A stretch of DNA of 64,000 bases from an uncultured bacterium (GCA_965552055.1 CBEVQO010000003.1:128001-192000); one strand, 5' to 3'. Shown: positions 6,415-62,710, counted from the first letter of the stretch. Made by a program: numbers and translations. Notes: generated by a model not told the origin, from the sequence alone.

Positions 6415-6441
6415 TTGACAGACCAAATTTTTGATTAAACT
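6415..6441 (+). promoter_or_regulatory. sigma70-type promoter, 15-bp spacer, leaderless
   Basis: TTGACA-N15-TAAACT-N6-ATG(6448). Confidence 0.65.
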
Positions 6442-6447
6442 GATAAG

Positions 6448-7869
6448 ATGTTTGTTCTGTTTATTCTTCTTTCTTATGCGAAATTTGAAATAAAGGAAAA
6501 ATACCCTCCTGACCTTTATCTCGTTGGATATGGTGTTGCAGAAAATACGGGCTCTGATAAAGATTTAGAACATGCAAAAGCAGGGGCTATGAGAGACCTT
6601 GCGAGTCAAATACAGTGCAGGATAAAAGCAGAATACATAGAAAATATCACAAAAATAAGTAAATCGCAAAAAGAATATATATCTTCTAAATGCAAACTGA
6701 TATCCGAATTGCAACTCGAAGGTGTTAAGTTTGAAATACAGCAAACCAGAAAATTTGTATATGCATGGGCGATATTAAATCGCATAGAGGCAGGCAAAAT
6801 ATATCGCCAAAAGATTGAAAAATTAATAGAAAAAATGAAAGAAAAAATGGAAGAAGCAGATTATTTGATATCTGCAGGTGATAAAACATCGGCATTGAAA
6901 AAATTGTTCGAAATGGGTAAAATTTTTGATAGATTTGAAGAAATGTCGCTAATTTATCTTGTAATATCAGGTAACCCCCCGCCCCCCGCCCCCTTCCCCC
7001 GCTATCAAATATCCACAAAAATCCATGAATTAACTCACAAAGATTTTAAAAATTTTGAAGATGTAATAACATCACTTGCATTTCAAATAATTCAGCAGAC
7101 AGGAAATGCAAAAATTGAAGTTTTCCCTTTTGAATACGAAGATACAGATTTTGGTAGCGAATTTTCTCACTATTTACAACAAAAATTAAAATCAACCATT
7201 GCAAGATTGATAAAAAGTGGCAAAAGAAACATTTATGTATATGGGAATTACTGGGTGATGAGAGGAAAAATGAAAATAATAGCAATTTTATATGATGCGG
7301 ATAAAAAAGAAATTGCAGGAAGTGCAGAAGTAACATTTCCAGAGAATTTTTTGAGAAACATCGGGATAGATTATAAACCCAAGAATTTTGTGCAGGCGAT
7401 GATTGATAAAAAATATTTTGCACCCGAAGAAATTGTTTATGGCGGGTTAAAGGTTGAATTCTGGACAAATAAGGGCACAAAGCACTTGCTTTATAAAAAG
7501 GGGGAGATTATGAAAATTTATGTGAGGGTGAACAAACCCTGCTATCTTCAATTTATTTATCATCTTGCAAATGGCATGCGAACCCTTCTTCTTAACAATT
7601 ATTATATTGATGAAGATAAAGTAAATAAAGTTGTTGAATTGCCTTATGAATTTGAGTGTGTACCGCCTTTTGGTGTGGAAAAGTTGCAAATATTTGCATC
7701 AACAGAACCTTTGCCAGAGCCAGATGTAAAGACAGTGGAAATAGAAGGCGTTAAATATAAAGTTTTGAAAGAAGATTTAAAAGATTTTCTACTTACTCAG
7801 AGGGGTTTCATTTTGAAGAACGAGGAAAAATCAGCAGAAAGGGTGCTAACTATAACTACAATTCCTTAA
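6448..7869 (+). CDS. Exported protein, LPP20-like N-terminus and C-terminal DUF4384 domain
   Basis: Short hydrophobic N-terminus; YLVGYG...AKAGAMRDLASQI; C-terminal WTNKG..YKKGE.MKIYVRVNKPCY...PPFGVEKLQIFAS. Confidence 0.6.
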   Translation: MFVLFILLSYAKFEIKEKYPPDLYLVGYGVAENTGSDKDLEHAKAGAMRDLASQIQCRIKAEYIENITKISKSQKEYISSKCKLISELQLEGVKFEIQQTRKFVYAWAILNRIEAGKIYRQKIEKLIEKMKEKMEEADYLISAGDKTSALKKLFEMGKIFDRFEEMSLIYLVISGNPPPPAPFPRYQISTKIHELTHKDFKNFEDVITSLAFQIIQQTGNAKIEVFPFEYEDTDFGSEFSHYLQQKLKSTIARLIKSGKRNIYVYGNYWVMRGKMKIIAILYDADKKEIAGSAEVTFPENFLRNIGIDYKPKNFVQAMIDKKYFAPEEIVYGGLKVEFWTNKGTKHLLYKKGEIMKIYVRVNKPCYLQFIYHLANGMRTLLLNNYYIDEDKVNKVVELPYEFECVPPFGVEKLQIFASTEPLPEPDVKTVEIEGVKYKVLKEDLKDFLLTQRGFILKNEEKSAERVLTITTIP

Positions 7870-7978
7870 GAGTTAGGTGCTATCTTTCAATGTTTTCCCC
7901 CAATTCTTTTTCGATTATTTCAAAACCTTTTGGTGAGATTTTTACAGCATGAATTCTATTTCCTATATGTGATACGCA

Positions 7979-8758
7979 TCAATAGTGACCGAGGACTCCT
8001 CTTACTCTCGCTATCTTTACAAAATATTTAAAAATATAAAAGCCAGCCAAAAAGTAAAATGTGCCATTTAAAATGAGAAAAATCAAATCCATTTTATTTA
8101 ATTGCCACAATCTTAAATTGTGAATCATAATTTTTGCGATTAATTCGGTACCAAGGGAAAGAGGTAATGCTTTTAAAGCAGGTATTTTATCAACAGGAGC
8201 AGCGATAAGTCCAACAAAAACAAATTGTAGAATTTGAAAGAATGACCTTATCTGCTTGAAAACAAGAGCGAGACCACCTGTCAAAAAGCCAATTCCATAA
8301 ACACTCATTAAAGTAAAAATAAATAAAGGGAGTAAAGAAATAAGGTCAAGATGAAGCCATCTTCCCGTTGTCGCCATCATTATAAATAATACAGGTAATA
8401 TGAAGATAAAAAGCGTGAGAATAAAATCAACTATTATTTTGAATAGAGTAAGCAAATCAAAGCCGAGCGGTGTCATAAAAAGCTGTTCGAGTGTGCCAAT
8501 CTCCGCTTCTCTCATCATTTCCCACGATAATGAAGAATATGCAGAGATCGCAAAAAGCCAGAGAAGGAAGCCAACGACAATGCCATCCAGATGCTCACCA
8601 AAAGAAGGACCTTTTGCAGCAAAATGAGAATAGCCAAAAAATACTATCAGAAATAAAAGGTAAATTGTGATAAAACTCGAAACAAGATTAAATGGATAAC
8701 GCTTCCAGCCAATCCATGATTTCTTTAATACCGCTAAAAATAAGTTAAGAGCCCTCAT
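7979..8758 (-). CDS. ABC-2 type transporter permease
   Basis: Multi-TM; EAEIGTLEQLFMTP motif; adjacent to ABC ATPase. Confidence 0.85.
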   Translation of the reverse strand: MRALNLFLAVLKKSWIGWKRYPFNLVSSFITIYLLFLIVFFGYSHFAAKGPSFGEHLDGIVVGFLLWLFAISAYSSLSWEMMREAEIGTLEQLFMTPLGFDLLTLFKIIVDFILTLFIFILPVLFIMMATTGRWLHLDLISLLPLFIFTLMSVYGIGFLTGGLALVFKQIRSFFQILQFVFVGLIAAPVDKIPALKALPLSLGTELIAKIMIHNLRLWQLNKMDLIFLILNGTFYFLAGFYIFKYFVKIARVRGVLGHY

Positions 8759-9695: not shown

Positions 9696-9697
9696 TA

Positions 9698-9845
9698 TCC
9701 GCCAAAAACATTATCTCCATCTCCATAGCTTTATATTGTAATTCAACAGAGGTAAATTTCTCCCGTAACTCCGATAACCCGCCTTCCCAGTCGAACTTGA
9801 ATTTCCTTTTTTGATTTTTCCTGCCCTTATAATTTCTTTTAACAT
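9698..9845 (-). pseudogene. Degenerate DUF2281-like antitoxin plus first codons of a PIN/VapC-like toxin
   Basis: KFKFDWEGGLSELREKFTSVELQYKAME resembles DUF2281 C-termini. Removing one base restores ...AMEWR* overlapping (TAATG) MFLAD. The promoter-proximal ATG 9845 (MLKEII) is out of frame with this core. Confidence 0.55.
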
Positions 9846-9850
9846 ATTTA

Positions 9851-9877
9851 ATTATACTCACTTTCCTGTGGTGTCAA
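9851..9877 (-). promoter_or_regulatory. sigma70-type promoter, 15-bp spacer
   Basis: TTGACA-N15-TATAAT-N5-ATG(9845). Confidence 0.7.
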
Positions 9878-10699: not shown

Positions 10700-10851
10700 A
10701 TCGTTTCTATATCTATGTTTTTCTTCTTCAATAATCTTTTAGCATATTTCAATAATTTTTCTGCGGTCTCATCGTCAATCCATTTTGTCAATATTTTGAG
10801 CTTTTCCTTATTGCTCCAATCTTTCATCTTTTCACCGATATCTTTTGCCAT
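10636..10851 (-). CDS. Putative antitoxin for the Doc toxin
   Basis: Small charged ORF immediately upstream of and overlapping doc; ends ...NIKLLKLLAKY like Doc-partner C-termini. Confidence 0.55.
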   Translation of the reverse strand: MAKDIGEKMKDWSNKEKLKILTKWIDDETAEKLLKYAKRLLKKKNIDIETIWHAERSIRKNIKLLKLLAKY

Positions 10852-13172: not shown

Positions 13173-14613
13173 ATGTCCCCCTTATCAAATATTTTATGAA
13201 TGTAGGAATTGACCTTAAAATCCTTTGACTTTCAACCGGGTGTAAAAATAATCTCCATAATCTGTAAAGAAGATACTTCGGACGAGTATAAAACTCAAAT
13301 CTTGCTCTATCGCAAAGAGCAACCTGTTCTTTTGAGGATAATTCAGGATAAGAGACAACACTGTTGTGTAAGCCATCTTTTGTTATCCATTGAGAAAAGT
13401 CCTCTGTTTCTAAAAAGCCCTTTTCTTTCACCCATTCATACATCGGAGTACCCGGATATACCATTATCGGGAAAAATTGAGCGGTATCTGGATTTAAAAT
13501 TTTGGCAAATTCTATTGTTTTCTTTGCTTTTTCCTTTGTCTCACCCGGAAAACCTATCATAAAGCATCCGTGTATTAAAATTCCGGCTTTCCTTGCATCT
13601 CTCATAAATTTATAAGCTCGGGATACTTTGAGACCCCTTTTTGCTATCTCCATAACTTCATCATCACCGGTCTCAAATCCGACACAAAGCAATCTACATC
13701 CTGCTTTTTTCAAAATCTTTAATGTTTCATAATCAAGGTCAAAGCGTGCATTTGCCGTGAATGGCAATTTTATTTTCCTTCTGATTTTTTCCTCACAAAA
13801 TTTGAATATCCTTTCTTTATTTACCGTGAAAGTATCGTCTTCTATGAAAATTTCTCTTACAAAAGGTAAATTTTTTTCGACCCATTCGAATTCATCAAGG
13901 ACATTTTCGACACTCCTTACTCTGTAGCGTTTTCCAAACATCACATTTGGATAAAGGCAATAAGGACAGCCAAAAGGACACCCCCTTCCCGTTATTATCG
14001 CAACCTGTGGATACTGACAGTTTGTATAAAAATAATTTCTTATGTTTAAATGGCGGGAATAAACCTGCGATACAAAAGGTAAATCATCTAAATTCTCAAT
14101 AAAAGGTCTATCCTCTGTTGATTTTATAACACCATTTTCCCTGTAAGTTATTCCTTTTACTTTTGATAAATTTCCTTTATTCTCAAAAGTTTTTACAACA
14201 TCGAGTAAAGTGTAATCATATTCTTTTCTGCAAATTATATCGATATCTTGTGATAGTTTAAGAGTTTCTTCTGGCAAAGCGCTAACATGTGGACCCACGA
14301 GTATTGTCAAGGCACCTGTTTCTTTTTTCAATTCGGATGCAACTTTTACATCGTTATAAATACTGGGTGTTGAGGTATCACAAACGATTACATCTGGCTT
14401 ATATTTTTTTACGAAGTTTTTAACATCTTCGAGTGTTTTTCCTTCGGCTGGTGCATCGTATAATTTTACGCTATAACCTTCTTTTTCAAGCACTCCCGTT
14501 GCATATGCAAGCCATATCGGGTAATAAATTGTGCCACTCTTTGTTACTGCAGGACTCCTTTGACTTCGGGAAAATTTAAAATGAAAAGGAGGATTTAACA
14601 TCAGGATTTTCAT
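13141..14613 (-). CDS. B12-binding radical SAM protein (HpnJ-like architecture)
   Basis: N-terminal LNPP...YPIWLAY cobalamin-binding domain; GRGCPFGCPYC; EDDTF; GFPGET. Confidence 0.88.
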   Translation of the reverse strand: MKILMLNPPFHFKFSRSQRSPAVTKSGTIYYPIWLAYATGVLEKEGYSVKLYDAPAEGKTLEDVKNFVKKYKPDVIVCDTSTPSIYNDVKVASELKKETGALTILVGPHVSALPEETLKLSQDIDIICRKEYDYTLLDVVKTFENKGNLSKVKGITYRENGVIKSTEDRPFIENLDDLPFVSQVYSRHLNIRNYFYTNCQYPQVAIITGRGCPFGCPYCLYPNVMFGKRYRVRSVENVLDEFEWVEKNLPFVREIFIEDDTFTVNKERIFKFCEEKIRRKIKLPFTANARFDLDYETLKILKKAGCRLLCVGFETGDDEVMEIAKRGLKVSRAYKFMRDARKAGILIHGCFMIGFPGETKEKAKKTIEFAKILNPDTAQFFPIMVYPGTPMYEWVKEKGFLETEDFSQWITKDGLHNSVVSYPELSSKEQVALCDRARFEFYTRPKYLLYRLWRLFLHPVESQRILRSIPTFIKYLIRGTFENSSNNTRL

Positions 14614-14619
14614 CTTTTC

Positions 14620-14646
14620 ATTTTAATCAAATAATTTCTCTGTCAA
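14620..14646 (-). promoter_or_regulatory. sigma70-type promoter, 15-bp spacer, leaderless
   Basis: TTGACA-N15-TAAAAT-N6-ATG(14613). Confidence 0.7.
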
Positions 14647-14655
14647 GAAGTAAAA

Positions 14656-15186
14656 TCATACTTTGAAGTCAATGATAAATCCATGTCTTATAAATTTTTG
14701 TTCTTCTTTTATATTGAGTGCCTTTTTTATTTCATCGAATTCCGCGGGTTTATGTCCTATAAAGAAACAAAAAGAAAAGTCTTTCGATTTGATGAAAAAT
14801 GCTTCACATTCTTCTTTTGTCAGTTTGTAAATGTTAACTCCTTCGAATTCAAATTTCTGCAATTCAATGCCTCTGATTTTTTCCGTGCCGACTCTGGATT
14901 TTAGTTTTTTGACTTCCTCCAAGAAAATTAATTTTACAGGGAAATCCCTGCCTTCGACCTGACAGATTATCTCTTTTTCTTCTTCAATTTCTTTATTTAT
15001 CTGTGCAATATAATAGTTTCCTTTTATCAATACGAGAGCAAGATTATCAAATGATTTTAAGATTTTGACTTTTACTTTTTCTCCGGGTATTAAGTTGAAC
15101 CTATTATCCCCAATGCTATTGAATTCAATTTTATTTCGTCGGTATCTGCTCTTGATAGCATTATACAGGGCTTTTTTGCTCCACAA
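14656..15186 (-). CDS. Hypothetical protein; true start probably near 15090
   Basis: Fills the gap between ptb and the next promoter; the first ~32 codons overlap ptb. Confidence 0.55.
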   Translation of the reverse strand: MWSKKALYNAIKSRYRRNKIEFNSIGDNRFNLIPGEKVKVKILKSFDNLALVLIKGNYYIAQINKEIEEEKEIICQVEGRDFPVKLIFLEEVKKLKSRVGTEKIRGIELQKFEFEGVNIYKLTKEECEAFFIKSKDFSFCFFIGHKPAEFDEIKKALNIKEEQKFIRHGFIIDFKV

Positions 15187-15920
15187 ATAACTCCACCTAT
15201 TTTCGCACCACCGAGATACAGAAGGGCTTTTGCAGAAATATTGCCTGCAGAAATTTCAGGTACTATCAAAATATCTGCGTCACCTGCTACTTCTCCTTTT
15301 ACTCCTTTTATTTCGCATGCACGCCGAGATACCGCAAGGTCAAGAGCAAGTGGTCCCTGAATGTAGCAATCTTTAAATTCTCCTTTTCTCCACATTTCTT
15401 CCAATTCTTTCGCTTCCAGGGTCTCCGGAATTTTATCCGTTACTTTTTCTACAGCTGCCAGGAGCGCAACTTTTGGACGCTCAATTCCGAATTTCCGGGC
15501 GAACTCTACTGCATTTATTATAATATCTTTTTTGAGATTTATATCGGGTTTTGGCACCATTCCACCATCGGATATGAAAAGCAGTTTGTGATAATAAGGG
15601 GTTTCAAGCACTGCCACATGGCTTAATGTTCTCCCTGTCCTGAATCCTGCTTCTTTATCAAGAATGCCACGCAGAAATGTTGCGGTATCTACAAGACCTT
15701 TCATCAAAATTGCATCTTTTTCTTCTGCTACAATTTTTACTGCTTTTTTAACGGCTTCTTCAGGAGAAGTTCCTTCTATAGCTTCGAAATCTTCAATGAT
15801 TTTCATTTCTTTTGCCTTTTTACATGCTTCGACACTAATGGGGTCTGCAGCGGCTATTATAACCTTTTTGCCACCAAGTTCTTTTGCTTTTTCGATTATT
15901 TCTTTAAAGGATTTAAGCAT
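15090..15920 (-). CDS. ptb: Phosphate butyryltransferase / phosphate acyltransferase
   Basis: ILMKGLVDT, SHVAVLE, GPLALDLA, VAGDADIL.VP.I.AGN, SRAD. Start set to MLKSF at 15920 because the longer ORF runs through the tRNA. Confidence 0.88.
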   Translation of the reverse strand: MLKSFKEIIEKAKELGGKKVIIAAADPISVEACKKAKEMKIIEDFEAIEGTSPEEAVKKAVKIVAEEKDAILMKGLVDTATFLRGILDKEAGFRTGRTLSHVAVLETPYYHKLLFISDGGMVPKPDINLKKDIIINAVEFARKFGIERPKVALLAAVEKVTDKIPETLEAKELEEMWRKGEFKDCYIQGPLALDLAVSRRACEIKGVKGEVAGDADILIVPEISAGNISAKALLYLGGAKIGGVICGAKKPCIMLSRADTDEIKLNSIALGIIGST

Positions 15921-15928
15921 AAAATTAA

Positions 15929-16000
<72 letters not shown>

Positions 16001-16007
16001 TCTTATC

Positions 16008-16034
16008 ATTATATTCAAAATTCCAATTTGTCAA
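16008..16034 (-). promoter_or_regulatory. Promoter of the tRNA-ptb unit, 15-bp spacer
   Basis: TTGACA-N15-TATAAT-N7-tRNA 5' G. Confidence 0.75.
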
Positions 16035-16043
16035 GCTGAAAAT

Positions 16044-16667
16044 CTATACTTTAAGGATAAGTAAATAATGATTTTGATTGTATAATTTTATTTTCTTATA
16101 AATTCTTACGAAAAAGAACTTTTTTAAAGCTTTTGCTACTTTATACTTTTCAGAAGGTACTAACACCCAGCCCTGTGCGATTTCTCCTTTATCTTTTACG
16201 CTCTTACCCCATAATTTTATTAGATTCAAAAAAATATCCCTCCCCCGATATTGTGGCAAAATGGCTAATCCAAATTCCCTAAAATCACAAAAAGGAACAC
16301 CTCTCGTTATCATATGGAATTTTAAAAAGTTGCAGCATAAGATAAGGAAGAAAAAGGGTTTATTAAAAGCCTGTTCAAAAAAATGTATAAGAATTTTGAT
16401 AAAATTTTTTAGAATACTTTTTACTGCTCGAAGTAGAAATGATTTATTCGTTTTAGAGGTTATCAGGAATCCTACAATTTTTTCACTAACTTCGGCTACG
16501 ATTGAATATTCACCTTGGAGTTCCAATATCCTTTCTAAGAAAAACAAGAATAAATTTTTTCCTAACAATTTATAAACAGGCGTCGGTAATTCATTTTCGT
16601 AAATTTTCAGTATTTCTTTCGAGTCTCTTAATTCTGCCCTTCTATAAGTTATCTCTTTTTCCACCAT
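16044..16667 (-). CDS. GNAT-family N-acetyltransferase-like protein
   Basis: ITYRRAELRD, VAEVSEKIVGF, LAILPQYRGR. Confidence 0.65.
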   Translation of the reverse strand: MVEKEITYRRAELRDSKEILKIYENELPTPVYKLLGKNLFLFFLERILELQGEYSIVAEVSEKIVGFLITSKTNKSFLLRAVKSILKNFIKILIHFFEQAFNKPFFFLILCCNFLKFHMITRGVPFCDFREFGLAILPQYRGRDIFLNLIKLWGKSVKDKGEIAQGWVLVPSEKYKVAKALKKFFFVRIYKKIKLYNQNHYLLILKV

Positions 16668-17998
16668 TTGTAAATTTCCGAAAAAGTGGTTATCCAGACA
16701 CTCGAATCGTTTAAAATTTTCGATAAAATAAAATCGAGCAAATTTTCTCTTAATCTAATATCCATACCTCTTATGAATTCAGGATGAATTGTGCATACGA
16801 AGACACCCCCTATGTCTCTTACAAAGTTAATTTTTTCTTCATAAAGTTTAAATAATTGATTTAGGGAATATCCCAGATAAAGAGGAGTAATACAATCGGG
16901 AGCTGTTGGAGGTATTTCGAGTATTCCTTCATTGAAAAATGGAAAATTAAAAGAAATACCCGCACCAAAATCAGAAGGTCTTTCATAATCAACATCGGGA
17001 AAAGAAGAAGAAAAATCAAAACCTGCTTCCTTTAATGTTTTGTGAAGATAAATGTTTCGAGCAAAACGCGGACTCCTAAAACCTTTTACATCTATAAAAT
17101 TAAAATAACTTGATTTTATCTTTTTAAGCAAATCAATTAAATCTTTTCTGAAGATGAGATAACCTGAGTGATTATCACCATGACAAATGACTTCTCCTTT
17201 AAGGTCTGTGATTCTTAAAATATCTTTTAGAATTTTGAAAGGGATAGACACATTATATTTTATTTTCGCCTTTTCTAACTTTTTAAAAATTCTCTTTGCT
17301 GTTTTGAAAGTAAGAGGCGAAGGTTCAATGTCTATGCAAAGCACAAATGCCCATTTATAATTCATTGGCCAATAAGGAGCTCTTTTTATATTTAACCATT
17401 TAAGACAAATTGTAAAGAGTTCTTTTAAAAAATATCCTTTGAAATCTATTGGAAAATTCATGGGGGATTTCTTTTTCCTAAAAAAGATTTTAAACAAAAA
17501 CGGCATAAGATAATATCCTGTTTCGTAATAAAATCTCTGGAAAAAATAAGAATCTGCCAGTGATGGGGTATTTTTTGTATAAGTCTCATGTAAAAGAGAA
17601 TACAGAGAGATACCGAGGTCAAAAGTTATCCAGCATCTTTTTTCTTTCTGTATCAATAAAGGATAATTATCATAATATAAAAAAGTATCACAGTTACCTT
17701 TAAATTTTACCTTTATTCTTCTTGTGTGTGGTATAAGGATATGTTTAACTTTATATTTTTCAAAAACCGGATGGCGACAATTTATCAAAATTTTACACCA
17801 GTTTTCCTGCGTTTTACCTACAATTTCTGAATCAAAGAATTTTTTTGCCTTTCCTTTTGATAAATTACCGATAACAATTCCTTCGCCATCAAATTCGTCA
17901 TTCGGGTTTAGCCATATTTTAATGTTTTCTTTTACTCCTTCAATATGCAACAGGGTTTTAATAGCCCATTTAGATTTTTCTTCTTTTCCGATAATCAC
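16649..17998 (-). CDS. Polysaccharide deacetylase-like protein
   Basis: FVLCIDIE, ICHGDNH, GFRSP, CTIHP in the C-terminal half. Confidence 0.65.
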   Translation of the reverse strand: MIIGKEEKSKWAIKTLLHIEGVKENIKIWLNPNDEFDGEGIVIGNLSKGKAKKFFDSEIVGKTQENWCKILINCRHPVFEKYKVKHILIPHTRRIKVKFKGNCDTFLYYDNYPLLIQKEKRCWITFDLGISLYSLLHETYTKNTPSLADSYFFQRFYYETGYYLMPFLFKIFFRKKKSPMNFPIDFKGYFLKELFTICLKWLNIKRAPYWPMNYKWAFVLCIDIEPSPLTFKTAKRIFKKLEKAKIKYNVSIPFKILKDILRITDLKGEVICHGDNHSGYLIFRKDLIDLLKKIKSSYFNFIDVKGFRSPRFARNIYLHKTLKEAGFDFSSSFPDVDYERPSDFGAGISFNFPFFNEGILEIPPTAPDCITPLYLGYSLNQLFKLYEEKINFVRDIGGVFVCTIHPEFIRGMDIRLRENLLDFILSKILNDSSVWITTFSEIYKWWKKR

Positions 17999-18003
17999 AC
18001 AAA

Positions 18004-18058
18004 AATATAATCTTAAAGTTAAAATGTCAACTTGACTTTTTTATAATTTAACTAAACT
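18004..18058. promoter_or_regulatory. Back-to-back divergent promoters, both with 15-bp spacers
   Basis: Minus: TTGACA(18030-18025)-N15-TATATT-N5-GTG(17998). Plus: TTGACT(18032)-N15-TAAACT-N5-ATG(18064). Confidence 0.65.
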
Positions 18059-18063
18059 TTTTG

Positions 18064-18750
18064 ATGGAAATATCCGTAGCTATTCCTGTTTTCAATGAAG
18101 AAAAGGCGATAAAAAAAGTAATTGAAGAATTAATTTTCTTTTTAAGCGAAAATAATTTGAATTTTGAACTCGTAATAATTGATGACGGCAGCACAGATTC
18201 TACTTTTTCTATTTTGCAAAGGTTTAGAAATAAGGGTTTTAAAATGAAAATAATCCGTCACAGATATAGACAGGGGATAGGGTTGGCGATAAAAGACGCT
18301 CTTTTAAATTCGCAGAATGAGTGGATTTTTCTGTTTCCCGGTGACGGGCAAGCGTCTCCTTTAGATCTTTTGAAAATGTTGAAATTTACTTCTAATTACG
18401 ATATAATAGTGGGAGTTAGAGAAAAAAGAGCAGATCCACGGTATAGATATATTACTTCGGACATCTGGAAATTTTTGATAAGATTTTTCTTTGGCATATC
18501 TTTTAAAGATATTAATTGGATAAAACTCATAAAAAGAGAAGTATTACAAAGTTTAGACATAAAATCCAAAAGTGCTTTTATAGATTCTGAGATTCTTTTA
18601 CGCGCTAAGAAGAAAGGATTTAGGATGATAGAAGTACCTGTATCTCATCGTGAGCGATTTGGAGGTAAGACGAAATGTCTTGCTCCATTAATTGCGTTCG
18701 ACGCACTAAAAGACATGGCAAAATTGCGAAAGGAAATTAGAGAAAAATGA
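18064..18750 (+). CDS. Glycosyltransferase family 2 (DPM1/polyprenol-phosphate sugar synthase-like)
   Basis: SVAIPVFNEE, IDDGSTD, GDGQ, EVPVSHRER. Confidence 0.88.
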   Translation: MEISVAIPVFNEEKAIKKVIEELIFFLSENNLNFELVIIDDGSTDSTFSILQRFRNKGFKMKIIRHRYRQGIGLAIKDALLNSQNEWIFLFPGDGQASPLDLLKMLKFTSNYDIIVGVREKRADPRYRYITSDIWKFLIRFFFGISFKDINWIKLIKREVLQSLDIKSKSAFIDSEILLRAKKKGFRMIEVPVSHRERFGGKTKCLAPLIAFDALKDMAKLRKEIREK

Positions 18751-20720
18751 GAGAAAAGATAATTTTGTTTTTTGTTATTGTATCCTTTATTTTTTACTTT
18801 AAAAAACCTTTCTTTGTGGAAGCGCATACTTATTTAAAAATGGTAAAGAATATTGAAAAAAAGTTTTTAGACCCTTATGCTGGCTACCATGAGTTTCATA
18901 ATTTCCAGATTCCCTTTTTTTACTACTGTAATGTCCCTCCGCTCTTTGCTTATTTTATTTATCCGTTTTATAAATTATTCGGAGAGAAAGAGATAGCATT
19001 TAGAATTCCTCTGTTCATTTTCTTTCTGCTTTCTATTTATTTTCTCCGAAAAACGATGTTACTTTTAAAAATGAGAACAGAATTTTATTTGCTGTTTTTA
19101 ACTTCTCCGCTTATTTTTATGAATTTTACAATAATATCTTCGATGATGGTCTCTTTTACTTTTTTCTTGATAAATTTTTATTTTCTTGAGGTATATATGT
19201 TTAGTAAGAAAATTAAACATCTTTTTATCTCATGTATCTTTGCTATTCTTTCTTTCTTAACACATTATTTGGGACTTTGCTCTTTATTGCCTTTTCTGGT
19301 TTATTTTTACAATAGAAAGAGAGAGATATTACTTTGTTTTTTGTTTTCCGCAATTTTTGCATTGCCTTTTTTTCTTCTAAATCTGAAATATTACGGGAAA
19401 ATTCATATTTTTGCTTTATGGAGATTACATGAGAAATTGGGTAATTTTTTGAATTTTTCTTTCTCCCGCAAGCTTGTAGCATTTGCAATGCTGACAGGCG
19501 GTACTTTATTTTGTCCTTTTTTCTTTATTTTCAATAAATCACTGGTAAGAAAATGGCTGTTACTTCTGCCTTTCGCTTTCCTTTTGATTTTCATATTGGA
19601 TGATACAAAGAAAATGCCTTTGCTCTATAAACTTTTTTCTTTATTGTTTTTAACAAATTTTCTTTTATTTCCTTTTCTTTTAAAATATAGAATTAATAGA
19701 ATTTTCTGTCTGTTTCTTATCTGTGGTGTTTTTACGCTGTTAATGTCTCCTTATGGAAGTATAAGGTATCTTCCTTTTGTTGCGTTTTTGTTTATACTTT
19801 TGTTAAGGCATGAATTATTTGCTTCCAGGTTAGAGTTGTTGGTTATCGCGAATTTTATTTTTTCTCTTTATCTTGCTTTTTCAGAATATTCCTTTGCCTC
19901 TTTTTATCGAGAAATTCCGCAAAAGGTTGATGTAAAGTGGTTTTGTCAGGAGTGTTGCGGTAAGATTTATTTCGAAAAAAAGGGAGCACATTATCTTGAA
20001 TTGAAAGAGAAGTTTGACCACTTTAAGAAACTTGCCGAGAAGTGTGATGTAAAAATAAAATTGAAAAAATCGGATTTGAAGTTCGGTGATAAAATAGCTC
20101 TTCCTCTTATAATGCATCCAACTGATTTAGGGGCGTCAAATTATTTTAAATTAAAAATTGAAAAAGAATACACTTTAAAGAGAAAATTCCTGTTAAAAAC
20201 TATGAATCCTTACAGTTTTACATCGTTATACTTCTCTGAATATGGTATTTTGCCTTATTGCTACGATAATAAAATATTTGAGAAATTTTTTATAATAAAA
20301 GTAGATACTACTACTTTAAGTTTTTTCAAATTCTTTGACAAATATCAGATGGCATGGACAGACCTAAATACCTATCCATTTTGTGTTTCTCCTGTTTGTT
20401 TACCTTCCGATACTTTTTTAGCACTAATTCAGCTTGCAGGTTCCTCATTGAAATTTGATGCAATAGTTTTGGTACATAAAATTAAGTTTAAAACGGGTAT
20501 TTTAAGTGCGAAAAAACTTCCAATTACAATGCGTGTAAAAATAAGGGATAAGCAGAAAGAAACCGTGCTATTTGAGAGAATCCATAAAAATGTTAAAAGG
20601 AATTTATCAGAAGAAGGGGAAATTTTTCTTGAGCCATTCTATGGTGATACCGTTGAGGTGATCTTTGAGGTATCAGGCGGAAGTGGTGCAGTATGGTGGG
20701 CGAAATTTAAAGAGTATTGA
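18747..20720 (+). CDS. Polytopic membrane protein, probable GT-C (ArnT/PMT-like) glycosyltransferase
   Basis: Many TMs; PPLFAY...LFG..EIAFR; RYLP; next to a DPM-like GT2. Confidence 0.6.
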   Translation: MREKIILFFVIVSFIFYFKKPFFVEAHTYLKMVKNIEKKFLDPYAGYHEFHNFQIPFFYYCNVPPLFAYFIYPFYKLFGEKEIAFRIPLFIFFLLSIYFLRKTMLLLKMRTEFYLLFLTSPLIFMNFTIISSMMVSFTFFLINFYFLEVYMFSKKIKHLFISCIFAILSFLTHYLGLCSLLPFLVYFYNRKREILLCFLFSAIFALPFFLLNLKYYGKIHIFALWRLHEKLGNFLNFSFSRKLVAFAMLTGGTLFCPFFFIFNKSLVRKWLLLLPFAFLLIFILDDTKKMPLLYKLFSLLFLTNFLLFPFLLKYRINRIFCLFLICGVFTLLMSPYGSIRYLPFVAFLFILLLRHELFASRLELLVIANFIFSLYLAFSEYSFASFYREIPQKVDVKWFCQECCGKIYFEKKGAHYLELKEKFDHFKKLAEKCDVKIKLKKSDLKFGDKIALPLIMHPTDLGASNYFKLKIEKEYTLKRKFLLKTMNPYSFTSLYFSEYGILPYCYDNKIFEKFFIIKVDTTTLSFFKFFDKYQMAWTDLNTYPFCVSPVCLPSDTFLALIQLAGSSLKFDAIVLVHKIKFKTGILSAKKLPITMRVKIRDKQKETVLFERIHKNVKRNLSEEGEIFLEPFYGDTVEVIFEVSGGSGAVWWAKFKEY

Positions 20721-21924
20721 TTAATGTTTTCATTTTCTCTATAAATGCTTTTTCTGAATAAAATCTTTCAACTTTTTTCCTTCCATTATTTCCCAACTCT
20801 GCTCTTAATTTATCATCCTGCAACAATTTTAAAATGGCATCAGCCAATATCTTTGAATTATCAGGTGGAACAAGTATTCCTTCTTTTGGTGTTACTATCT
20901 GATTTACAGGTTCTACATTACAGGCGATCACAGGTTTTGAGCAGCTCCATGCTTCAAGGTAAACGATACCAAAGGATTCAACAGATGAAGGCAATACCAC
21001 TATGTCGCAAGTATTAAAAATAAGTGGTTTTAATTTATCTTTAAAATCGTAAATTTTAATGATATTTTTTTTCAAATTGAATGGCATTTTTTCTATTTCT
21101 TTTTCTAAAAACTTTGTATGGGGAGTTGTCTTTCCAGCTATTATTAATTTTACAGAAGGCATTTTTTTCCATACTTCTTTCATTGCGGTTAAAAGTGTAA
21201 ATATTCCTTTTTCTTTTTCATGACGGGCAATGAAACCGACCACTTTTTCTTGTTTTATGCCGAATCTCTTCTTTAAATCTTCCTTTGTTGCGAATTTAGA
21301 AAGATTCACAAAATCACCCAATATTGCGATTTTCTCTTTTTTTATCTTCCAGCGAGACACGATGTAATTTTTTTCAAATTCTGAGTTTACCCATATTTTA
21401 TCTGCTTTATTGAAAACAAATTTTATCGATTCTCTATCGAAGCACCACTTATCAAATGGGTGCACACAGGGTATAACTACAAATTTGAATTTCATGAATA
21501 CTCTAGCTATAGCACAATAGTATAATGTTAAGAAGGGCAGTGAAGCACTTATAACTATGTCGGGTTTTTCTTTCAAAATAGAAGGAATGATGGAAGGTAA
21601 AATTGGCCCTGTAAAAATGCATCTGAAAAAATCATTTAAAGGTAGCTTCTTGTGATATAATAGGGAACCAATTTTATACAAAATTTTAGGGAAGAATCTA
21701 ATTACATTAAATCTGATTACTTCAATGTTGTCAATTTTTACTTTTCTTTTCTTAAGTAAAGGGATATTTAAATTTACGAATGCATGTGGAGTCGGAACAT
21801 TTGTGGTGAAAATTTTCACTTTAAAATGTTTTTTTAAATAGTTAGCTATTTTTCTGATTTTATGCTCCGTGCCACCGATTGAAGGATAATAAGCATGTAC
21901 AACAATTAGCACCTTTTTACCCAT
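20707..21924 (-). CDS. Glycosyltransferase family 4
   Basis: YYPSIGG, KG, VLPSSVESFGIVYLEAW. Confidence 0.92.
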   Translation of the reverse strand: MGKKVLIVVHAYYPSIGGTEHKIRKIANYLKKHFKVKIFTTNVPTPHAFVNLNIPLLKKRKVKIDNIEVIRFNVIRFFPKILYKIGSLLYHKKLPLNDFFRCIFTGPILPSIIPSILKEKPDIVISASLPFLTLYYCAIARVFMKFKFVVIPCVHPFDKWCFDRESIKFVFNKADKIWVNSEFEKNYIVSRWKIKKEKIAILGDFVNLSKFATKEDLKKRFGIKQEKVVGFIARHEKEKGIFTLLTAMKEVWKKMPSVKLIIAGKTTPHTKFLEKEIEKMPFNLKKNIIKIYDFKDKLKPLIFNTCDIVVLPSSVESFGIVYLEAWSCSKPVIACNVEPVNQIVTPKEGILVPPDNSKILADAILKLLQDDKLRAELGNNGRKKVERFYSEKAFIEKMKTLINTL

Positions 21925-23093: not shown

Positions 23094-23098
23094 ATCAA

Positions 23099-23125
23099 AT
23101 TATAAACCTTAATCTGGTCTGTCAA
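23099..23125 (-). promoter_or_regulatory. sigma70-type promoter, 15-bp spacer, leaderless
   Basis: TTGACA-N15-TATAAT-N5-GTG(23093). Confidence 0.75.
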
Positions 23126-23402
23126 TATAAATTTTTGCTTTCTAAATTAAGACAGTTTAACAAAAAATGGGGGTCAACTTTTCGGGGGTTTTTGTCATAA
23201 AAATCGAGAATTTTATCGAAATTTTTTTCAAAAGTTCTGTGAGGATTTTAGAGGAGTTTTTCTAAATTGGCTTAAATTCTAAATTTATGATGGACATCTA
23301 TTTTAAATTTTTTGGGAATTTTATGGTTGACAAATTTCATAATTCTTATAATAGAATATGATATGTTATTTAATTTAAGAAATAGTGAGGAAAGGGGGTG
23401 AG

Positions 23403-29020: not shown

Positions 29021-29047
29021 ATTTTAAAGAAAATGTGGATATGTCAA
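29021..29047 (-). promoter_or_regulatory. sigma70-type promoter, 15-bp spacer, leaderless
   Basis: TTGACA-N15-TAAAAT-N5-ATG(29015). Confidence 0.7.
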
Positions 29048-31474: not shown

Positions 31475-31501
31475 ATTTTATTCGGTTTACTCCATTGTCA
31501 A
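31475..31501 (-). promoter_or_regulatory. sigma70-type promoter, 15-bp spacer, leaderless
   Basis: TTGACA-N15-TAAAAT-N5-ATG(31469). Confidence 0.7.
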
Positions 31502-31566
31502 CAATTTTATTTCTGCTTGACAAATCTCGATTTTTCTTATAAATAAAGTAAGAAAAGGAGGGAGGG

Positions 31567-35056: not shown

Positions 35057-35079
35057 ATAATAATCAAAATTTTAATTTG

Positions 35080-35083
<4 letters not shown>
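35057..35083 (-). promoter_or_regulatory. rpsF operon promoter, 15-bp spacer
   Basis: TTGACA-N15-TATTAT-N7-ATG(35049). Confidence 0.65.
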
Positions 35084-44341: not shown

Positions 44342-44368
44342 AATATATCCTAAAGACTAAAATGTCAA
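44342..44368 (-). promoter_or_regulatory. sigma70-type promoter, 15-bp spacer, leaderless
   Basis: TTGACA-N15-TATATT-N6-GTG(44335). Confidence 0.65.
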
Positions 44369-44494: not shown

Positions 44495-44521
44495 TTGACA
44501 AATCAAAAAATTATTTATCTT
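44495..44521 (+). promoter_or_regulatory. sigma70-type promoter, 15-bp spacer, leaderless
   Basis: TTGACA-N15-TATCTT-N4-GTG(44526). Confidence 0.6.
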
Positions 44522-46798: not shown

Positions 46799-46825
46799 AA
46801 TCTAATCAAATTCTCATAATGTCAA
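46799..46825 (-). promoter_or_regulatory. sigma70-type promoter, 15-bp spacer, leaderless
   Basis: TTGACA-N15-TAGATT-N5-ATG(46793). Confidence 0.65.
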
Positions 46826-53267: not shown

Positions 53268-53272
53268 GTATT

Positions 53273-53299
53273 AAAATAATTAAAAAAGGGCATTGTCAA
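53273..53299 (-). promoter_or_regulatory. valS promoter, 15-bp spacer
   Basis: TTGACA-N15-TATTTT then TTG (N5) or ATG (N8). Confidence 0.55.
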
Positions 53300-53328: not shown

Positions 53329-53889
53329 TTATCTGATAAGTATCATCTTATGCACCTTGCGAAAATCTTTTGTCCTCATTTCAACAAAATATATTCCTGC
53401 GGGTAATATTTTTCCGATATCCCATCGCAAACTGTAATTGCCCGGTTTAATTTCTTTCGAAATCAATATTTGAGATACTCTACCAGTTACATCGTAAACC
53501 TTTATTTCGATATGCGTTCTCTTTGGTACGCTAAAAGATAAATTTACAGCACCGCGCGAAGGATTGGGATAAGGGCATGAGAAAGCATATTTAAGTTCCC
53601 TGTTCTTCTTTTCTTGTAAAGCAATGGGTGGGAGAGTCTGTAGTGTATAAAATCCTGCCTGTTCCAGATACATCGAATCCTTTGATTCCCCCGTAATAGA
53701 TTGAGTGGCACCATAAAGAAGATAAGAGCTATATAAGCCATTACATAGACCGTAAGGTTGCACGAAAACAAGCATAGGATGTTCATCGTCGATTGTTACG
53801 ATCTTTAAGAAATCTTTATCAAGTTCAATATGCGCTTTTCCATTTTTTAATTTGCCGATCCCAAAATCTTCAAAAAAATTTGTTGACAT
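53329..53889 (-). pseudogene. Probable chimeric remnant ending in a T9SS-like C-terminal sorting domain
   Basis: No signal peptide. C-terminus PYPNP...KVYDVTGR...LPAGIYFV...KMILIR. The called ATG lies inside the -35 box of the divergent gcvPB promoter. Confidence 0.5.
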
Positions 53890-53909
53890 ACAGAGAAATA
53901 ACTTAAAAT
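53883..53909 (+). promoter_or_regulatory. sigma70-type promoter, 15-bp spacer, leaderless
   Basis: TTGACA-N15-TAAAAT-N7-ATG(53917). Confidence 0.7.
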
Positions 53910-61497: not shown

Positions 61498-61583
61498 AAT
61501 CCCTCCTTTTCTATTTTTATCAATTTTTATCTAAAATATCAGGATGTCAAGTAAAAATTTTAAAAATTTTAAAAAATTTTTCG

Positions 61584-61610
61584 TTTACTTATCTGCAAGC
61601 GTATTAAAAT
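61584..61610 (+). promoter_or_regulatory. dprA promoter, 15-bp spacer, leaderless
   Basis: TTTACT-N15-TAAAAT-N6-ATG(61617). Confidence 0.55.
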
Positions 61611-61616
61611 CTGAAG

Positions 61617-62678
61617 ATGCTCGAAAGTTTACTGAAATTGATGAAAATAAAAGGAATGACCGAAAGAAGATTGAAAATACTTTTGGACAAATTTAAATCC
61701 CCGGAGCAAATTATGAAAGCAGATTTTGAGGAAATTGCCAGTGTTACGGATAATTTGATAGCAGAGAACATTAAAATGGCCAGAGAGATTAATGTTGAAA
61801 AAGAACTTAAGTTTATTGAGAAAGAAGAGATAAAAATTTTATTGTATCTGGATGATGCCTATCCCGAAAGGTTAAAAGAAATTACGGATTTTCCACCTGT
61901 TTTATTTGTTAAAGGAGATACATCTATTTTCTCCGGGCATTGTATTGCTGTTATAGGTACGCGTTCTCCTTCAAGTTATGGTGAAAGCATGGCGAAAAAA
62001 TTTTCTTATGAACTTGCGCAATCTGGTGTAGTAATTGTTAGTGGAATGGCGAGGGGTATAGACAGCATATCGCATCAATCTGCCATAGATGCAGGCGGTA
62101 AAACAATAGCAGTGCTGGGGAGCGGGATAGATAAAATTTATCCTCCTGAAAATAAAAAACTTTATTACAAAATAGCAAAAAGGGGGGCTGTTATTTCTGA
62201 ATTTCCAATCGGTATGCCTCCTTATCCCGGTAATTTCTTAAAAAGAAACAGAATAATAAGCGGATTGTCAGAAGGGGTACTCGTGATTGAAGCTCCTGAA
62301 AAAAGTGGTGTTTTTTCAACCGTAAACTGGGCATTAATGCAGGGTAAAGATGTTTTCGCTCTTCCAAGTAACATAACAAATGAGAGGGGGGCAGGTACAA
62401 ATAAGCTGATAAAAGAGGGGGCATATCTCGTTACATCCGTTAAGGATATCCTTAACATTTTAAAAATTTATCCAGAATACGAAAAGAAGGTTAAAGAAGT
62501 TAAAATCTCGCCAGAAGAAGAAAAAATATTTTCTTTGATTTCATTCGAGCCCGTTCATTTTGACAAACTATTAGAGGAGAGCGAAAAAAATATGGGGGAA
62601 CTTTCTTCTTTGCTTTTATCTCTTGAAATTAAAGGATTGATAAAGCAATTACCTGGCAAATATTATGTGCGATTTTAA
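61617..62678 (+). CDS. dprA: DNA-processing protein DprA
   Basis: YP..LKEI.D.PPVLF, IGTR, VSGMARGID, RNRIISGLS, C-terminal winged helix. Confidence 0.96.
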   Translation: MLESLLKLMKIKGMTERRLKILLDKFKSPEQIMKADFEEIASVTDNLIAENIKMAREINVEKELKFIEKEEIKILLYLDDAYPERLKEITDFPPVLFVKGDTSIFSGHCIAVIGTRSPSSYGESMAKKFSYELAQSGVVIVSGMARGIDSISHQSAIDAGGKTIAVLGSGIDKIYPPENKKLYYKIAKRGAVISEFPIGMPPYPGNFLKRNRIISGLSEGVLVIEAPEKSGVFSTVNWALMQGKDVFALPSNITNERGAGTNKLIKEGAYLVTSVKDILNILKIYPEYEKKVKEVKISPEEEKIFSLISFEPVHFDKLLEESEKNMGELSSLLLSLEIKGLIKQLPGKYYVRF

Positions 62679-62683
62679 ATCAC

Positions 62684-62710
62684 TTGACAAATCAAAAATT
62701 TTATTATATT
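62684..62710 (+). promoter_or_regulatory. sigma70-type promoter
   Basis: TTGACA-N15-TATATT; an N17 TATTAT is also possible here. Confidence 0.55.

Follow-up and report, generated by a model that had tools for sequence, protein, structure and literature searches.

In housekeeping transcription the spacer of 17±1 bp between the -35 and -10 hexamers is regarded as almost constant, being determined by how far apart sigma2 and sigma4 lie on the core enzyme. MerR activators correct off-length spacers by distorting the DNA. In a survey of 49 species with mapped transcription start sites a 17-bp spacer is given as predominant, and species leaning towards 15 bp may be among the 49 (PMC12641261). Single E. 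coli promoters with 15-bp spacers are described as the tail of a 15-21 range and not as its mode (PMC8695583). A recent domain-wide promoter predictor accepts spacers of 16-18 bp only (10.64898/2026.09.23.753901), and would therefore miss promoters of the type described here. We found no description of a 15-bp housekeeping spacer as the mode of a lineage in the literature searched, the per-species plots of the 49-species survey lying outside that search.

The window analysed here is a 64,000-nucleotide stretch of the genome of an uncultured, WOR-3-like bacterium (G000; 2.23 Mb, 35.6% GC, 1818 TTGACA).

Promoter sites in the window

The original prediction was that promoters in this window have a fixed 15-bp spacer, with 17 sites at which a TTGACA-like hexamer is followed after 15 nt by TAnnnT. 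All 17 were recovered at the same positions, with TAnnnT after 15 nt in 17/17. The -35 hexamer is exactly TTGACA in 15 of them, 18032+ reading TTGACT and 61584+ TTTACT. At the three sites where a -10 had been reported missing from the canonical 17-nt position (6415, 14620, 53883), TAnnnT is absent at 16, 17 and 18, and a second, overlapping TAnnnT at 17 is present in 3/17 sites (18004, 23099, 62684). Three further, imperfect cases also match their earlier description. Minus-strand sites had been numbered by the low end of the 27-bp span, 61550- alone by the high end. Of the 59 TTGACA in the window, 15 have TAnnnT at 15, and 0-4 at each other spacing from 8 to 25. The sites and the genes beside them are as follows.

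6415..6441, plus strand: promoter TTGACA-N15-TAAACT; ATG 6 nt 3' (6448), 473-aa ORF with DUF4384
9851..9877, minus strand: promoter TTGACA-N15-TATAAT; leadered, with no long-ORF start codon within 11 nt; next ORF an ABC ATPase
14620..14646, minus strand: promoter TTGACA-N15-TAAAAT; ATG 6 nt 3' (14613), B12-binding radical SAM protein
15929..16000, minus strand: tRNA-Met gene, served by the 16008 promoter
16008..16034, minus strand: promoter TTGACA-N15-TATAAT; 7 nt 5' of tRNA-Met
18004..18030, minus strand: promoter TTGACA-N15-TATATT; GTG 5 nt 3' (17998); back to back with 18032+
18032..18058, plus strand: promoter TTGACT-N15-TAAACT; ATG 5 nt 3' (18064), GT2 glycosyltransferase
23099..23125, minus strand: promoter TTGACA-N15-TATAAT; GTG 5 nt 3' (23093), GT4 glycosyltransferase
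23327..23352, plus strand: imperfect site TTGACA-N14-TATAAT; 5' of a class-V aminotransferase
29021..29047, minus strand: promoter TTGACA-N15-TAAAAT; ATG 5 nt 3' (29015), ApbE family
31475..31501, minus strand: promoter TTGACA-N15-TAAAAT; ATG 5 nt 3' (31469); back to back with 31517+
31517..31543, plus strand: imperfect site TTGACA-N15-TATAAA; 5' of a response regulator with a Shine-Dalgarno sequence
35057..35083, minus strand: promoter TTGACA-N15-TATTAT; ribosomal protein S6, ATG 7 nt 3'; GGAG after the -10, later start possible
44342..44368, minus strand: promoter TTGACA-N15-TATATT; GTG 6 nt 3' (44335), glycosyltransferase
44495..44521, plus strand: promoter TTGACA-N15-TATCTT; GTG 4 nt 3' (44526), asparagine synthase beginning Met-Cys-Gly
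46799..46825, minus strand: promoter TTGACA-N15-TAGATT; ATG 5 nt 3' (46793), NUDIX
53273..53299, minus strand: promoter TTGACA-N15-TATTTT; valyl-tRNA synthetase, TTG at 5 nt, ATG at 8 nt
53883..53909, plus strand: promoter TTGACA-N15-TAAAAT; ATG 7 nt 3' (53917), glycine cleavage P protein subunit
61524..61550, minus strand: imperfect site TTGACA-N15-TAAAAA; 5' of a SpoIIE-domain phosphatase
61584..61610, plus strand: promoter TTTACT-N15-TAAAAT; ATG 6 nt 3' (61617), DprA
62684..62710, plus strand: promoter TTGACA-N15-TATATT; ATG 9 nt 3' (62720), ABC ATPase

Class II glutamine amidotransferases need a cysteine at position 2; the asparagine synthase start at 44526 is fixed because this N-terminal Cys is catalytic.

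Spacer length across the genome

Across the whole G000 genome TTGACA is followed by TATAAT at spacers of 14/15/16/17/18 bp in 7/121/27/7/4 cases, and by TAnnnT in 45/416/93/106/48. Of the 632 TTGACA that lie outside coding cores, 335 have TAnnnT at exactly 15; 200 shuffles average 28.5 (sd 5) and reach 42 at most. The 50 matches at 16 are a small excess; of the 73 at 17, 49 overlap a 15-bp match and the 24 left are fewer than the shuffle mean of 29. The genome-wide peak thus falls at 15, as predicted, and not at 16-18, but "fixed" was slightly too strong a word, as the 16-bp minority is real. With the exception of TTGACT, one-mismatch variants of TTGACA lack the 15-bp peak, indicating that all six bases are selected.

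The 15-bp spacer is found at both rRNA promoters of G000 and at 20 of its 26 tRNA/tmRNA TTGACA sites, so that, by position, these sites serve rRNA, tRNA and core genes (S6, ValRS). Of 364 divergent unit leaders, 185 contain an exact 15-bp site (1 after shuffling); among the 80 with neither a 15- nor a 16-bp site, no other promoter motif stood out. Very probably the G000 sites function as primary promoters whose spacer is truly 15 bp.

Promoter register and sequence

The register was read without assuming one or other hexamer. Among 131 ATG starts that have TAWWAT 5 nt before them, a TTG stands at spacers of 15/16/17/18 in 78/13/0/14 cases. Conversely, for 271 TTGACA with an ATG 29-37 nt downstream, the 15-bp position reads T.87 A.80 A/T A.75 A.70 T.77, with no conserved base two positions beyond this box. 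An in-frame start codon lies 3-9 nt after the -10 in 193 of 341 non-coding sites, 106 at 5 nt (control offsets, 28-47), and SD-like words accompany 2/86 starts at 5 nt versus 29/34 starts at 17-18 nt. That start codons are most frequent 5 nt past the -10, and there lack a Shine-Dalgarno sequence, fixes the promoter register. Transcription would begin some 6 nt past the -10, so that many mRNAs would be leaderless and some would have a short leader with an SD; most of these predicted promoters appear to yield leaderless mRNAs, on which the original prediction had not remarked. No RNA run was listed for positions 14001-24000 of the window, which counts neither for nor against these starts.

The sites have the -35 TTGACA and, in an unbiased logo, the -10 TAnnnT of the primary sigma70 class, but their spacer lies outside its 17±1 bp. 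An extended -10 TG is found at -16/-15 more often than at the usual -15/-14 (84 versus 21 in one count, 87 versus 14 of 288 sites in another), and the unrelated 16-bp genome G035, whose RpoD is also changed at 454/458, likewise has TG one base upstream (89 versus 12). With TAWAAT, a C before TTGACA, an upstream A-tract and the TG motif, G000 promoters are like those of the RpoD-bearing G013 and G035 and unlike those of G001 (TAnnTT, no A-tract, no TG). The spacers of G000 and G001 have length in common and no sequence likeness, and the G000 spacer logo contains no conserved dyad or factor site.

Related genomes

G000 and a sister family (G001-G003; 99, 87 and 66% complete) make up an order of four genomes that probably belongs to WOR-3; the split is deep, RpoC of G000 and G001 being 60.5% identical. 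In the sister family TTGACA-N-TAnnTT occurs at 15/16/17 in 71/22/9 (G001), 62/18/8 (G002) and 45/11/8 (G003) cases, compared with 24/89/78 and 9/15/30 in two relatives from the same class. All four genomes of the order (4/4) therefore have the 15-bp spacer and the sampled relatives 16 or 17. Other 16-bp lineages in the phylum are G035 (3/193/15 at 15/16/17), G014, G024, G027 and G029. A shortened -35/-10 distance in the primary promoters of this lineage is well supported by the rRNA/tRNA genes, the anchoring to start codons and the contrast between lineages.

We had considered the 15-bp mode unique to G000 after a phylum scan with TATAAT (121 in G000, at most 11 in 271 others); the scan overlooked the sister family because its -10 is TAnnTT. 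An apparent 15-bp class in family f3 (11/3/0 with TATAAT) was also discarded, as the matches overlap 17-bp TAATTT boxes and f3 peaks at 16-17. The four genomes of one order represent one evolutionary event.

RNA polymerase and sigma factors

RpoD of G000 (P0001, G000:C7) is encoded after dnaG and has regions 1.1, 1.2, 2, 3 and 4. The parts that read the -35 and -10 are canonical, including the sigma4.2 helix and the W-dyad, and changes to conserved columns are concentrated elsewhere (10/19 in 2.4-3.0 versus 8/57 in 2.1-2.3 plus 4.2; Fisher p=0.0014). Where the prediction had suggested a search of RpoD and the beta flap for indels, RpoD has a one-residue deletion seen in 0/155 homologs and a 3.2 segment of 27 residues, two longer than the 25 of 149/155 homologs; the beta flap has no indel against 29-31 relatives, and an indel there was rejected as the cause. 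R441, V454 and E458, described as spacer contacts with 100% conservation (PMC4593229), are replaced by K400, P413 and N417; the spacer-contact positions R441, R451, V454, H455 and E458 thus read K, R, P, H and N, 3/5 changed. Divergence in 2.4-3.0 is just as great in two genomes with 16-bp spacers (G030, 11/19; G036, 8/19), and 454/458 are changed in G029 and G023 without a clear TG shift (8:8 and 15:14). RpoD of G035 is without the deletion and falls in another clade.

On TIGR02393 the G000 protein scores 288.7 bits, below the 354 cut-off and the most diverged tested (relatives 318-387); 3/5 relatives pass, G004 (352.7) and G016 (318.5) also falling below. It lies on a long branch. This divergence and long branch also fit partial loss of function. 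A horizontal origin was rejected, because in a quick tree the protein clusters with others of its class at a support of 98. In the protein database no near relative exceeded 48% local identity (best full-length match, 35%), a scan of genome contigs found 4 distant loci only, and an Atlas search returned generic SigA clusters only. G000 has no 17-bp promoter class for an RpoD with intact -35/-10 reading parts to act on.

In the core enzyme, a beta' zipper R to K change (R in 29/29 relatives and 119/120 homologs) and a clamp insertion are found in G000 only. G000 and the sister family have in common a beta' zipper E to D change, beta' S354A, beta flap K825R, beta V1091A and QF to RA in GGKAQFGG, which are absent or nearly so in 28-31 phylum relatives. 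These shared substitutions are few, mostly conservative and include no indel, and K825R is also present in the 16-bp G029.

No long RpoD was found in G001-G003 with a protein query and two family searches at the completeness given above, nor any group 1/2 sigma other than a short paralogous one; the gene that comes after dnaG in G001 and G002, in mid-contig, is a DUF4159 gene. The short sigma, of about 275 aa and encoded beside degP, lacks region 1.1 (copies L005 and L051 have regions 1.2, 2, 3 and 4 only). G000 carries it together with RpoD and so has no sole group 1/2 sigma. In an unrooted quick tree of 25 rows, two sigmas from Bacteroidota lie between the RpoD group and that of the short sigmas.

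Interpretation and alternatives

The best reading of these sequences is, as originally proposed, an altered region 2-region 4 geometry. Between its regions 2 and 4 RpoD does have indels and substitutions that are unique to it, but the beta flap has no indel, and a sister family with the same spacer but no RpoD found speaks against RpoD as the only cause. The RNA polymerase of the order likely measures promoters with a shorter ruler, a holoenzyme whose -35-binding domain would sit about two base pairs nearer the -10-binding domain than in other bacteria. In G000 the reader would be mainly RpoD, with remodelling of the parts that hold the spacer, namely its sigma2.4-3.0 surface and, in the core, the beta' zipper. 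Because the sister family keeps 15 bp with only a short paralogous sigma, RpoD alone is probably not the ruler, which would have arisen in the ancestor of the order, at least partly in the shared core, with each sigma co-adapted. A shifted holoenzyme with two different sigmas reading 15 bp is thus the most likely arrangement. A modest change could be enough, since high expression is retained in E. coli by a consensus promoter whose spacer is 15 bp (PMC8695583). We hold the whole chain, from housekeeping 15-bp promoters through reading mainly by RpoD in G000 to a ruler partly in the core, to be evenly balanced between right and wrong.

The main rival, which we think rather unlikely, is that the short sigma became the housekeeping factor in the order's ancestor and sets the 15-bp spacer, RpoD being secondary or decaying in G000 and lost in the sister family. 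A single change would then cover all four genomes, and Bacteroidota offer a precedent in a short primary sigma without region 1.1 (PMC6847099). The apparent loss of RpoD and the altered dnaG neighbourhood fit this course, as does the short sigma itself: it has a canonical 4.2 helix, is orthologous between G000 and the sister family, has in G000 the shortest branch of four class copies (0.63-0.69 versus 1.14-1.56), is 98.8% identical between G001 and G002 (RpoB 97.1, RpoC 97.5), and its cluster has a 15-bp promoter upstream. Yet it is phylum-wide, 16- and 17-bp genomes included, and only 49% identical between G000 and the sister family; in promoter features G000 matches the RpoD-bearing G013 and G035, not G001; and the RpoD ORF is intact despite the deep split, its changes concentrated and not scattered. 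Nor is TAnnTT diagnostic, because the RpoD-bearing G004 uses it at 16-17. Another rival is an accessory sigma- or RNAP-binding factor common to the order, which would reposition sigma4 or distort the spacer and so let an otherwise ordinary holoenzyme work at 15 bp, in mirror image to MerR on over-long spacers. It would explain two sigmas with one spacer and so little core change. Appropriation of sigma4 has precedents in T4 AsiA/MotA, RbpA and GcrA. The spacer logo without a factor site, the likeness of G000 and G001 spacers in length alone and the lack of a candidate make this quite improbable.

More doubtful still is an effect of DNA topology in a thermophile with reverse gyrase: DNA that is relaxed or positively supercoiled would favour short spacers, to which the promoters would have adapted while the enzyme had no special change. 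Reverse gyrase is present in G000, G001 and G002, and relaxation is reported to favour 15-nt spacers in E. coli (PMC9303308); but G026, G038 and G029 also have it, with 1/1/12, 0/2/21 and 1/31/18 at 15/16/17, which rules it out as a sufficient cause. G000 also has gyrB, and by arithmetic two base pairs gained by twist alone need about 10% overwinding. That the register is an illusion, with a true spacer of 17 and either a -10 two bases downstream (TAATnn) or sigma4 reading two bases upstream (nCTTGA), is very improbable. The 49 of 335 non-coding sites with TAnnnT at 17 too, and the C before TTGACA in about half of sites, would agree with it. Against it, a shifted box has no conserved T at -7; a shifted start would land inside start codons, one of them the fixed Met-Cys start at 44526; every base of TTGACA is selected; and in the 17-bp G013 the C is commoner still (0.90) with an equal A-tract offset from TTGACA. 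Chance or a repeated element has a negligible claim: a 35.6% GC genome makes TAnnnT common, but the shuffles never approach the observed count, the spacers are mutually unrelated and the sites point into genes, so that it is already refuted.

Returning to the shifted holoenzyme, we put forward tentatively, at somewhat less than an even chance, that the core polymerase of the entire order was reset to 15 bp, and that TTGACA-N15-TAnnnT is read with it by two unrelated sigma paralogues, a remodelled RpoD in G000 and, in the sister family, a short sigma replacing it. This would be a snapshot of a housekeeping-sigma handover like that of Bacteroidota, in a natural polymerase that is orthogonal in its choice of spacer. 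One phylum holds sharp 17-, 16- and 15-bp genomes with identical hexamers, and a 15-bp family apparently without RpoD; subunit swaps, guided by a short list of candidate residues, can therefore test directly whether sigma, core or DNA topology sets the spacer. If true, a holoenzyme preferring 15 bp would be a starting point for orthogonal expression systems.

Comparison with known systems

G000 promoters are like those of canonical primary sigma70/SigA (TTGACA-N17±1-TATAAT; E. coli, B. subtilis) in their hexamers, upstream A-tract, T-rich block before the -10 and use at rRNA and tRNA genes, and the canonical start about 6-7 nt after the -10 would apply here too. They differ in that 15 is the mode, 16 a minority and 17 not represented as a class, and in TG at -16/-15 instead of -15/-14. 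The 16-bp lineages of the phylum also have a genome-wide short spacer, and G035 has in addition the upstream-shifted TG, the changed 454/458 and some leaderless starts at 5-7 nt, but their spacer is one base longer and still within 17±1. In sigma-S, use of non-optimal spacers has been linked to residues at the 458 position (PMC10911233). That is tolerance by an alternative sigma, and MerR acts at single promoters with over-long spacers and an activator dyad; in G000 the spacer is short, has no dyad and would be the default for the whole transcriptome. Leaderless-rich Actinobacteria and Deinococcus-Thermus are described with TAnnnT a few bases before SD-less start codons, as in G000, which adds a near-perfect -35 at a fixed 15 bp at most predicted leaderless starts. 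Bacteroidota and Chlorobi, with sigma-ABfr and -33/-7 promoters, have a short primary sigma without region 1.1, as would the sister family, whose TAnnTT resembles the Chlorobaculum -10 box TA[ATC][ATC][AT]T (10.1101/172254). Their TTTG/TAnnTTTG consensus, with a longer and looser gap, is absent in G000, where no TG is conserved after the -10; the order described here has instead a full TTGACA at a tight 15 bp, and G000 keeps RpoD.

Spacer length in the window and the genome

The original prediction listed 17 sites in the window at which a TTGACA-like -35 hexamer is followed after exactly 15 nt by TAnnnT, and inferred from them an altered geometry of sigma factor and RNA polymerase. All 17 spans were recovered at their listed positions, with TAnnnT after 15 nt in 17/17 and an exact TTGACA in 15/17; an overlapping TAnnnT box at 17 bp was also available in 3/17. 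Across the whole assembly of this genome, G000 (2.23 Mb, 35.6% GC, 97% complete, 1818 TTGACA), TTGACA-Nx-TATAAT occurs 7, 121, 27, 7 and 4 times for x = 14 to 18. Outside coding cores, 335 of 632 TTGACA hexamers have TAnnnT at 15 bp, as against 28.5±5 (maximum 42) when the 40 nt downstream of each non-coding TTGACA were shuffled 200 times. Matches at 16 bp number 50, and those at 17 bp number 73, of which 49 overlap a 15-bp match, leaving 24. The spacer mode of G000 is 15 bp, with a real minor class at 16 bp and nothing above chance at 17 bp; the 15-bp spacer therefore stands as a genome-wide mode, but not as a fixed length.

Register of the -10 element and leaderless starts

A start codon lies 4-9 nt past the -10 element in 15/17 window sites; of the remaining two, one stands before tRNA-Met. 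In the whole of G000, an in-frame start (ATG 139, GTG 42, TTG 12) follows the -10 by 3-9 nt at 193 of the 341 non-coding sites, with exactly 5 nt in 106 (controls 28-47). An SD-like word accompanies 2/86 starts at 5 nt versus 29/34 starts at 17-18 nt, where it lies between the -10 and the ATG. The pattern suggests leaderless and short-leader mRNAs with a predicted transcription start about 6 nt past the -10.

With start codons as the only anchor, 78 of 131 cases have TTG at spacer 15, 13 at 16 and 14 at 18, and none has it at 17. With TTGACA as the only anchor, a conserved T-A-x-A-A-T stands at the 15-bp position, with no conservation two bases further. A -10 shifted by two bases was considered and rejected: transcription would then start inside start codons, including that of asparagine synthase at 44526, which opens Met-Cys. 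The Cys-2 rule for this enzyme is well established. With the register fixed in this way, the sequences give neither a genome-wide peak at 16-18 bp nor a -10 displaced about 2 nt downstream, the two outcomes that would have told against the original prediction. The sites are very probably true primary promoters with a 15-bp spacer.

Extensive leaderless initiation is predicted genome-wide (in the window, for example, at 6448, 14613, 29015, 31469, 44526 and 46793) despite an intact 16S anti-SD tail, and a second class of starts has SD-bearing leaders of 11-12 nt. Divergent back-to-back promoters with -35 boxes 1-16 nt apart, mostly 8-15, also occur throughout the genome (window 18004-18058 and 31475-31543).

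Genes downstream of the 15-bp promoter sites

The single 16S gene found in G000 has tandem upstream promoters, both TTGACA-N15-TAnnnT. TTGACA lies within 60 nt of 26/47 tRNA/tmRNA genes; at these, TAnnnT is found at 15 bp in 20, only at 17 in one and not at all in five, four of which still have TA at the 15-bp position. A crude ORF-based gene set gives 364 leaders of divergent units. An exact 15-bp site precedes 185 of them, and allowing one mismatch raises this to 222, against 1 and 8 after shuffling; no second motif stood out among the 80 leaders lacking a 15- or 16-bp site. Judged by position, TTGACA-N15-TAnnnT sites are very probably the main promoters of G000.

Spacer length across the phylum

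The nearest named RpoC homologues carry the label candidate division WOR-3, which makes WOR-3 the probable phylum. G000 is the sole member of its family. It has 121 15-bp TATAAT sites, compared with at most 11 in each of 271 other genomes, a scan that missed the sister family f2 of the same order (G001-G003), whose -10 is TAnnTT. With that box, counts at 15/16/17 bp are 71/22/9, 62/18/8 and 45/11/8 in G001-G003, 24/89/78 in G004 (family f3) and 9/15/30 in G016, another relative. When 272 genomes were scanned with TAnnnT, the four genomes of the order gave 416, 99, 89 and 62 15-bp matches (reversed-pattern controls 26, 19, 17 and 12), or 69-187 per Mb; none of 14 high-count outsiders chosen by eye exceeds 26 per Mb. 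The 15-bp spacer is order-wide, and no other 15-bp lineage emerged from the 15-bp counts against controls, which use exact TTGACA.

Counts at 16 and 17 bp cover 40 relatives, scanned with TATAAT. Family f4 is sharply 17-bp (128-237 sites at 17, 0-6 at 15 or 16), G035 is sharply 16-bp (3/193/15), and the remaining patterns include mixed 16/17 genomes. G035 represents a further, apparently independent non-canonical geometry, with TG at -16/-15 (L151-L160, L164-L183). The f4 genomes (G013, G009 and others) are unusually consensus-rich, with 128-237 perfect TTGACA-N17-TATAAT promoters each, mostly leadered and with TGn in over half. G004 and G016, which bear RpoD, have 16-17-bp spacers and mostly use TAnnTT in place of TATAAT as the -10.

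Sigma factors and core RNA polymerase

The RpoD of G000 (575 aa, gene after dnaG) has all regions; in a tree it joins its own class and has a long branch. The original prediction had suggested checking RpoD and the beta-flap for indels. Compared with 155 RpoD homologues (36 from the phylum, 119 database matches), the G000 protein is unique in a one-residue deletion in the 3.0-3.1 helix; the G000 core has no beta-flap indel. The RpoD 3.2 segment has 27 residues, versus 25 in 149/155 homologues, and its acidic finger tip is replaced. Conserved columns differ at 10/19 positions in 2.4-3.0, 1/19 in 4.2 and 7/38 in 2.1-2.3, the last mostly conservatively. By alignment offset, K400, P413 and N417 occupy the positions of E. 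coli R441, V454 and E458. According to PMC4593229, these three residues are 100% conserved across 1002 primary sigmas and touch the duplex from -17 to -13, as do beta' Y34/R35, a pair whose role is described in PMC3173786. The beta' R35 position is K in G000. The extended -10 TG lies one base upstream of normal in G000 (84 vs 21) and likewise in G035 (89 vs 12), and at the usual place in f4 (93-160 vs 0-9). In G000 this shift appears to go in step with the changes in spacer-contact residues. A simple RpoD explanation is counted against by two 16-bp genomes equally diverged in 2.4-3.0, by two genomes altered at 454/458 without a clear TG shift, and by a G000 RpoD score that falls short of the curated cut-off for RpoD.

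On visual inspection the RpoD N-terminus has a second region-1.1-like repeat (about residues 66-120; L002:490-850); Pfam reports one region 1.1 stretch there at E<=0.001. A FliA-like sigma recognised by eye after FlhF/FlhG-like genes (L004, G000:C1:472638-475856) suggests a flagellar regulon.

Long RpoD was not found in the draft genomes G001-G003 with a protein query and two Pfam families. A DUF4159 gene directly follows dnaG, mid-contig, in G001 and G002 (G001:C89, G002:C20; L242, L243), and dnaG was not found in G003 (66% complete). The only sigmas found in the three drafts are an ECF sigma and the short sigma, an RpoD paralogue with regions 1.2-4 encoded beside degP (L050-L052). Loss of rpoD in f2 is likely, short of proof because these genomes are drafts; if it holds, the short sigma would read the 15-bp promoters there, and RpoD would not be the whole cause. 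Takeover by the short sigma is the main rival explanation of the 15-bp spacer, though a less likely one. The paralogue occurs phylum-wide, in G000 and in 16- and 17-bp genomes alike, and G000 promoters share TAWAAT, a C ahead of TTGACA, an upstream A-tract and the TG with the promoters of RpoD-bearing relatives and look unlike those of G001. This likeness, and the availability of only 15- and 16-bp sites to an RpoD whose -35 and -10 reading parts are intact, favour RpoD as the main reader in G000.

DNA relaxation, reported to favour 15-nt spacers (PMC9303308), may help but would not suffice: reverse gyrase is present in G000, G001 and G002, which are therefore probably thermophiles, but the peak falls at 16 or 17 in three further genomes with reverse gyrase, and G000 has gyrB. 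The gyrB and reverse gyrase genes of G000 are no more than 14 kb apart (G000:C4:72212-86113), and the reverse gyrase match in another relative, G026, is broken by one in-frame TAG (L120/G026:C2:40862-44275).

Our preferred mechanism, to which we give an even chance, is that RpoD would be the main reader of 15-bp promoters in G000, with a core change providing a cause shared by G000 and f2. Both share an E to D change in the beta' zipper (E in 28/28 phylum relatives and 119/120 homologues), QF to RA in beta GGKAQFGG, and beta' S354A and beta K825R, Q450P and V1091A (numbered on open frames), several of which presumably sit close to where the sigma 3.2-4 linker runs. These substitutions are leads that stem from one evolutionary event. 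The RpoC clamp helix hairpin has a four-residue insertion (open-frame residues 207-210; L102), in G000 only among those aligned.

Comparison with known promoter systems

No description of a 15-bp housekeeping mode or of WOR-3 promoters was found in the literature searched, whose coverage excludes most subscription journals; the order-wide mode is real and, against that literature, apparently new. In published work, 17 bp predominates over 49 species (PMC12641261), 15 bp is considerably less favourable, limited by sigma4 rotation (PMC10911233), and a recent promoter predictor allows 16-18 bp only (10.64898/2026.09.23.753901). Individual 15-bp promoters exist in E. coli and can be strong, according to PMC8695583, so the novelty lies in the genome-wide mode and not in the length as such. 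The G000 sites probably work like primary sigma70 promoters but depart from their 17±1 spacer. The short primary sigma of Bacteroidota/Chlorobi, as presented in PMC6847099 and 10.1101/172254, is a precedent for sigma handover, although its promoter consensus differs from that found here.
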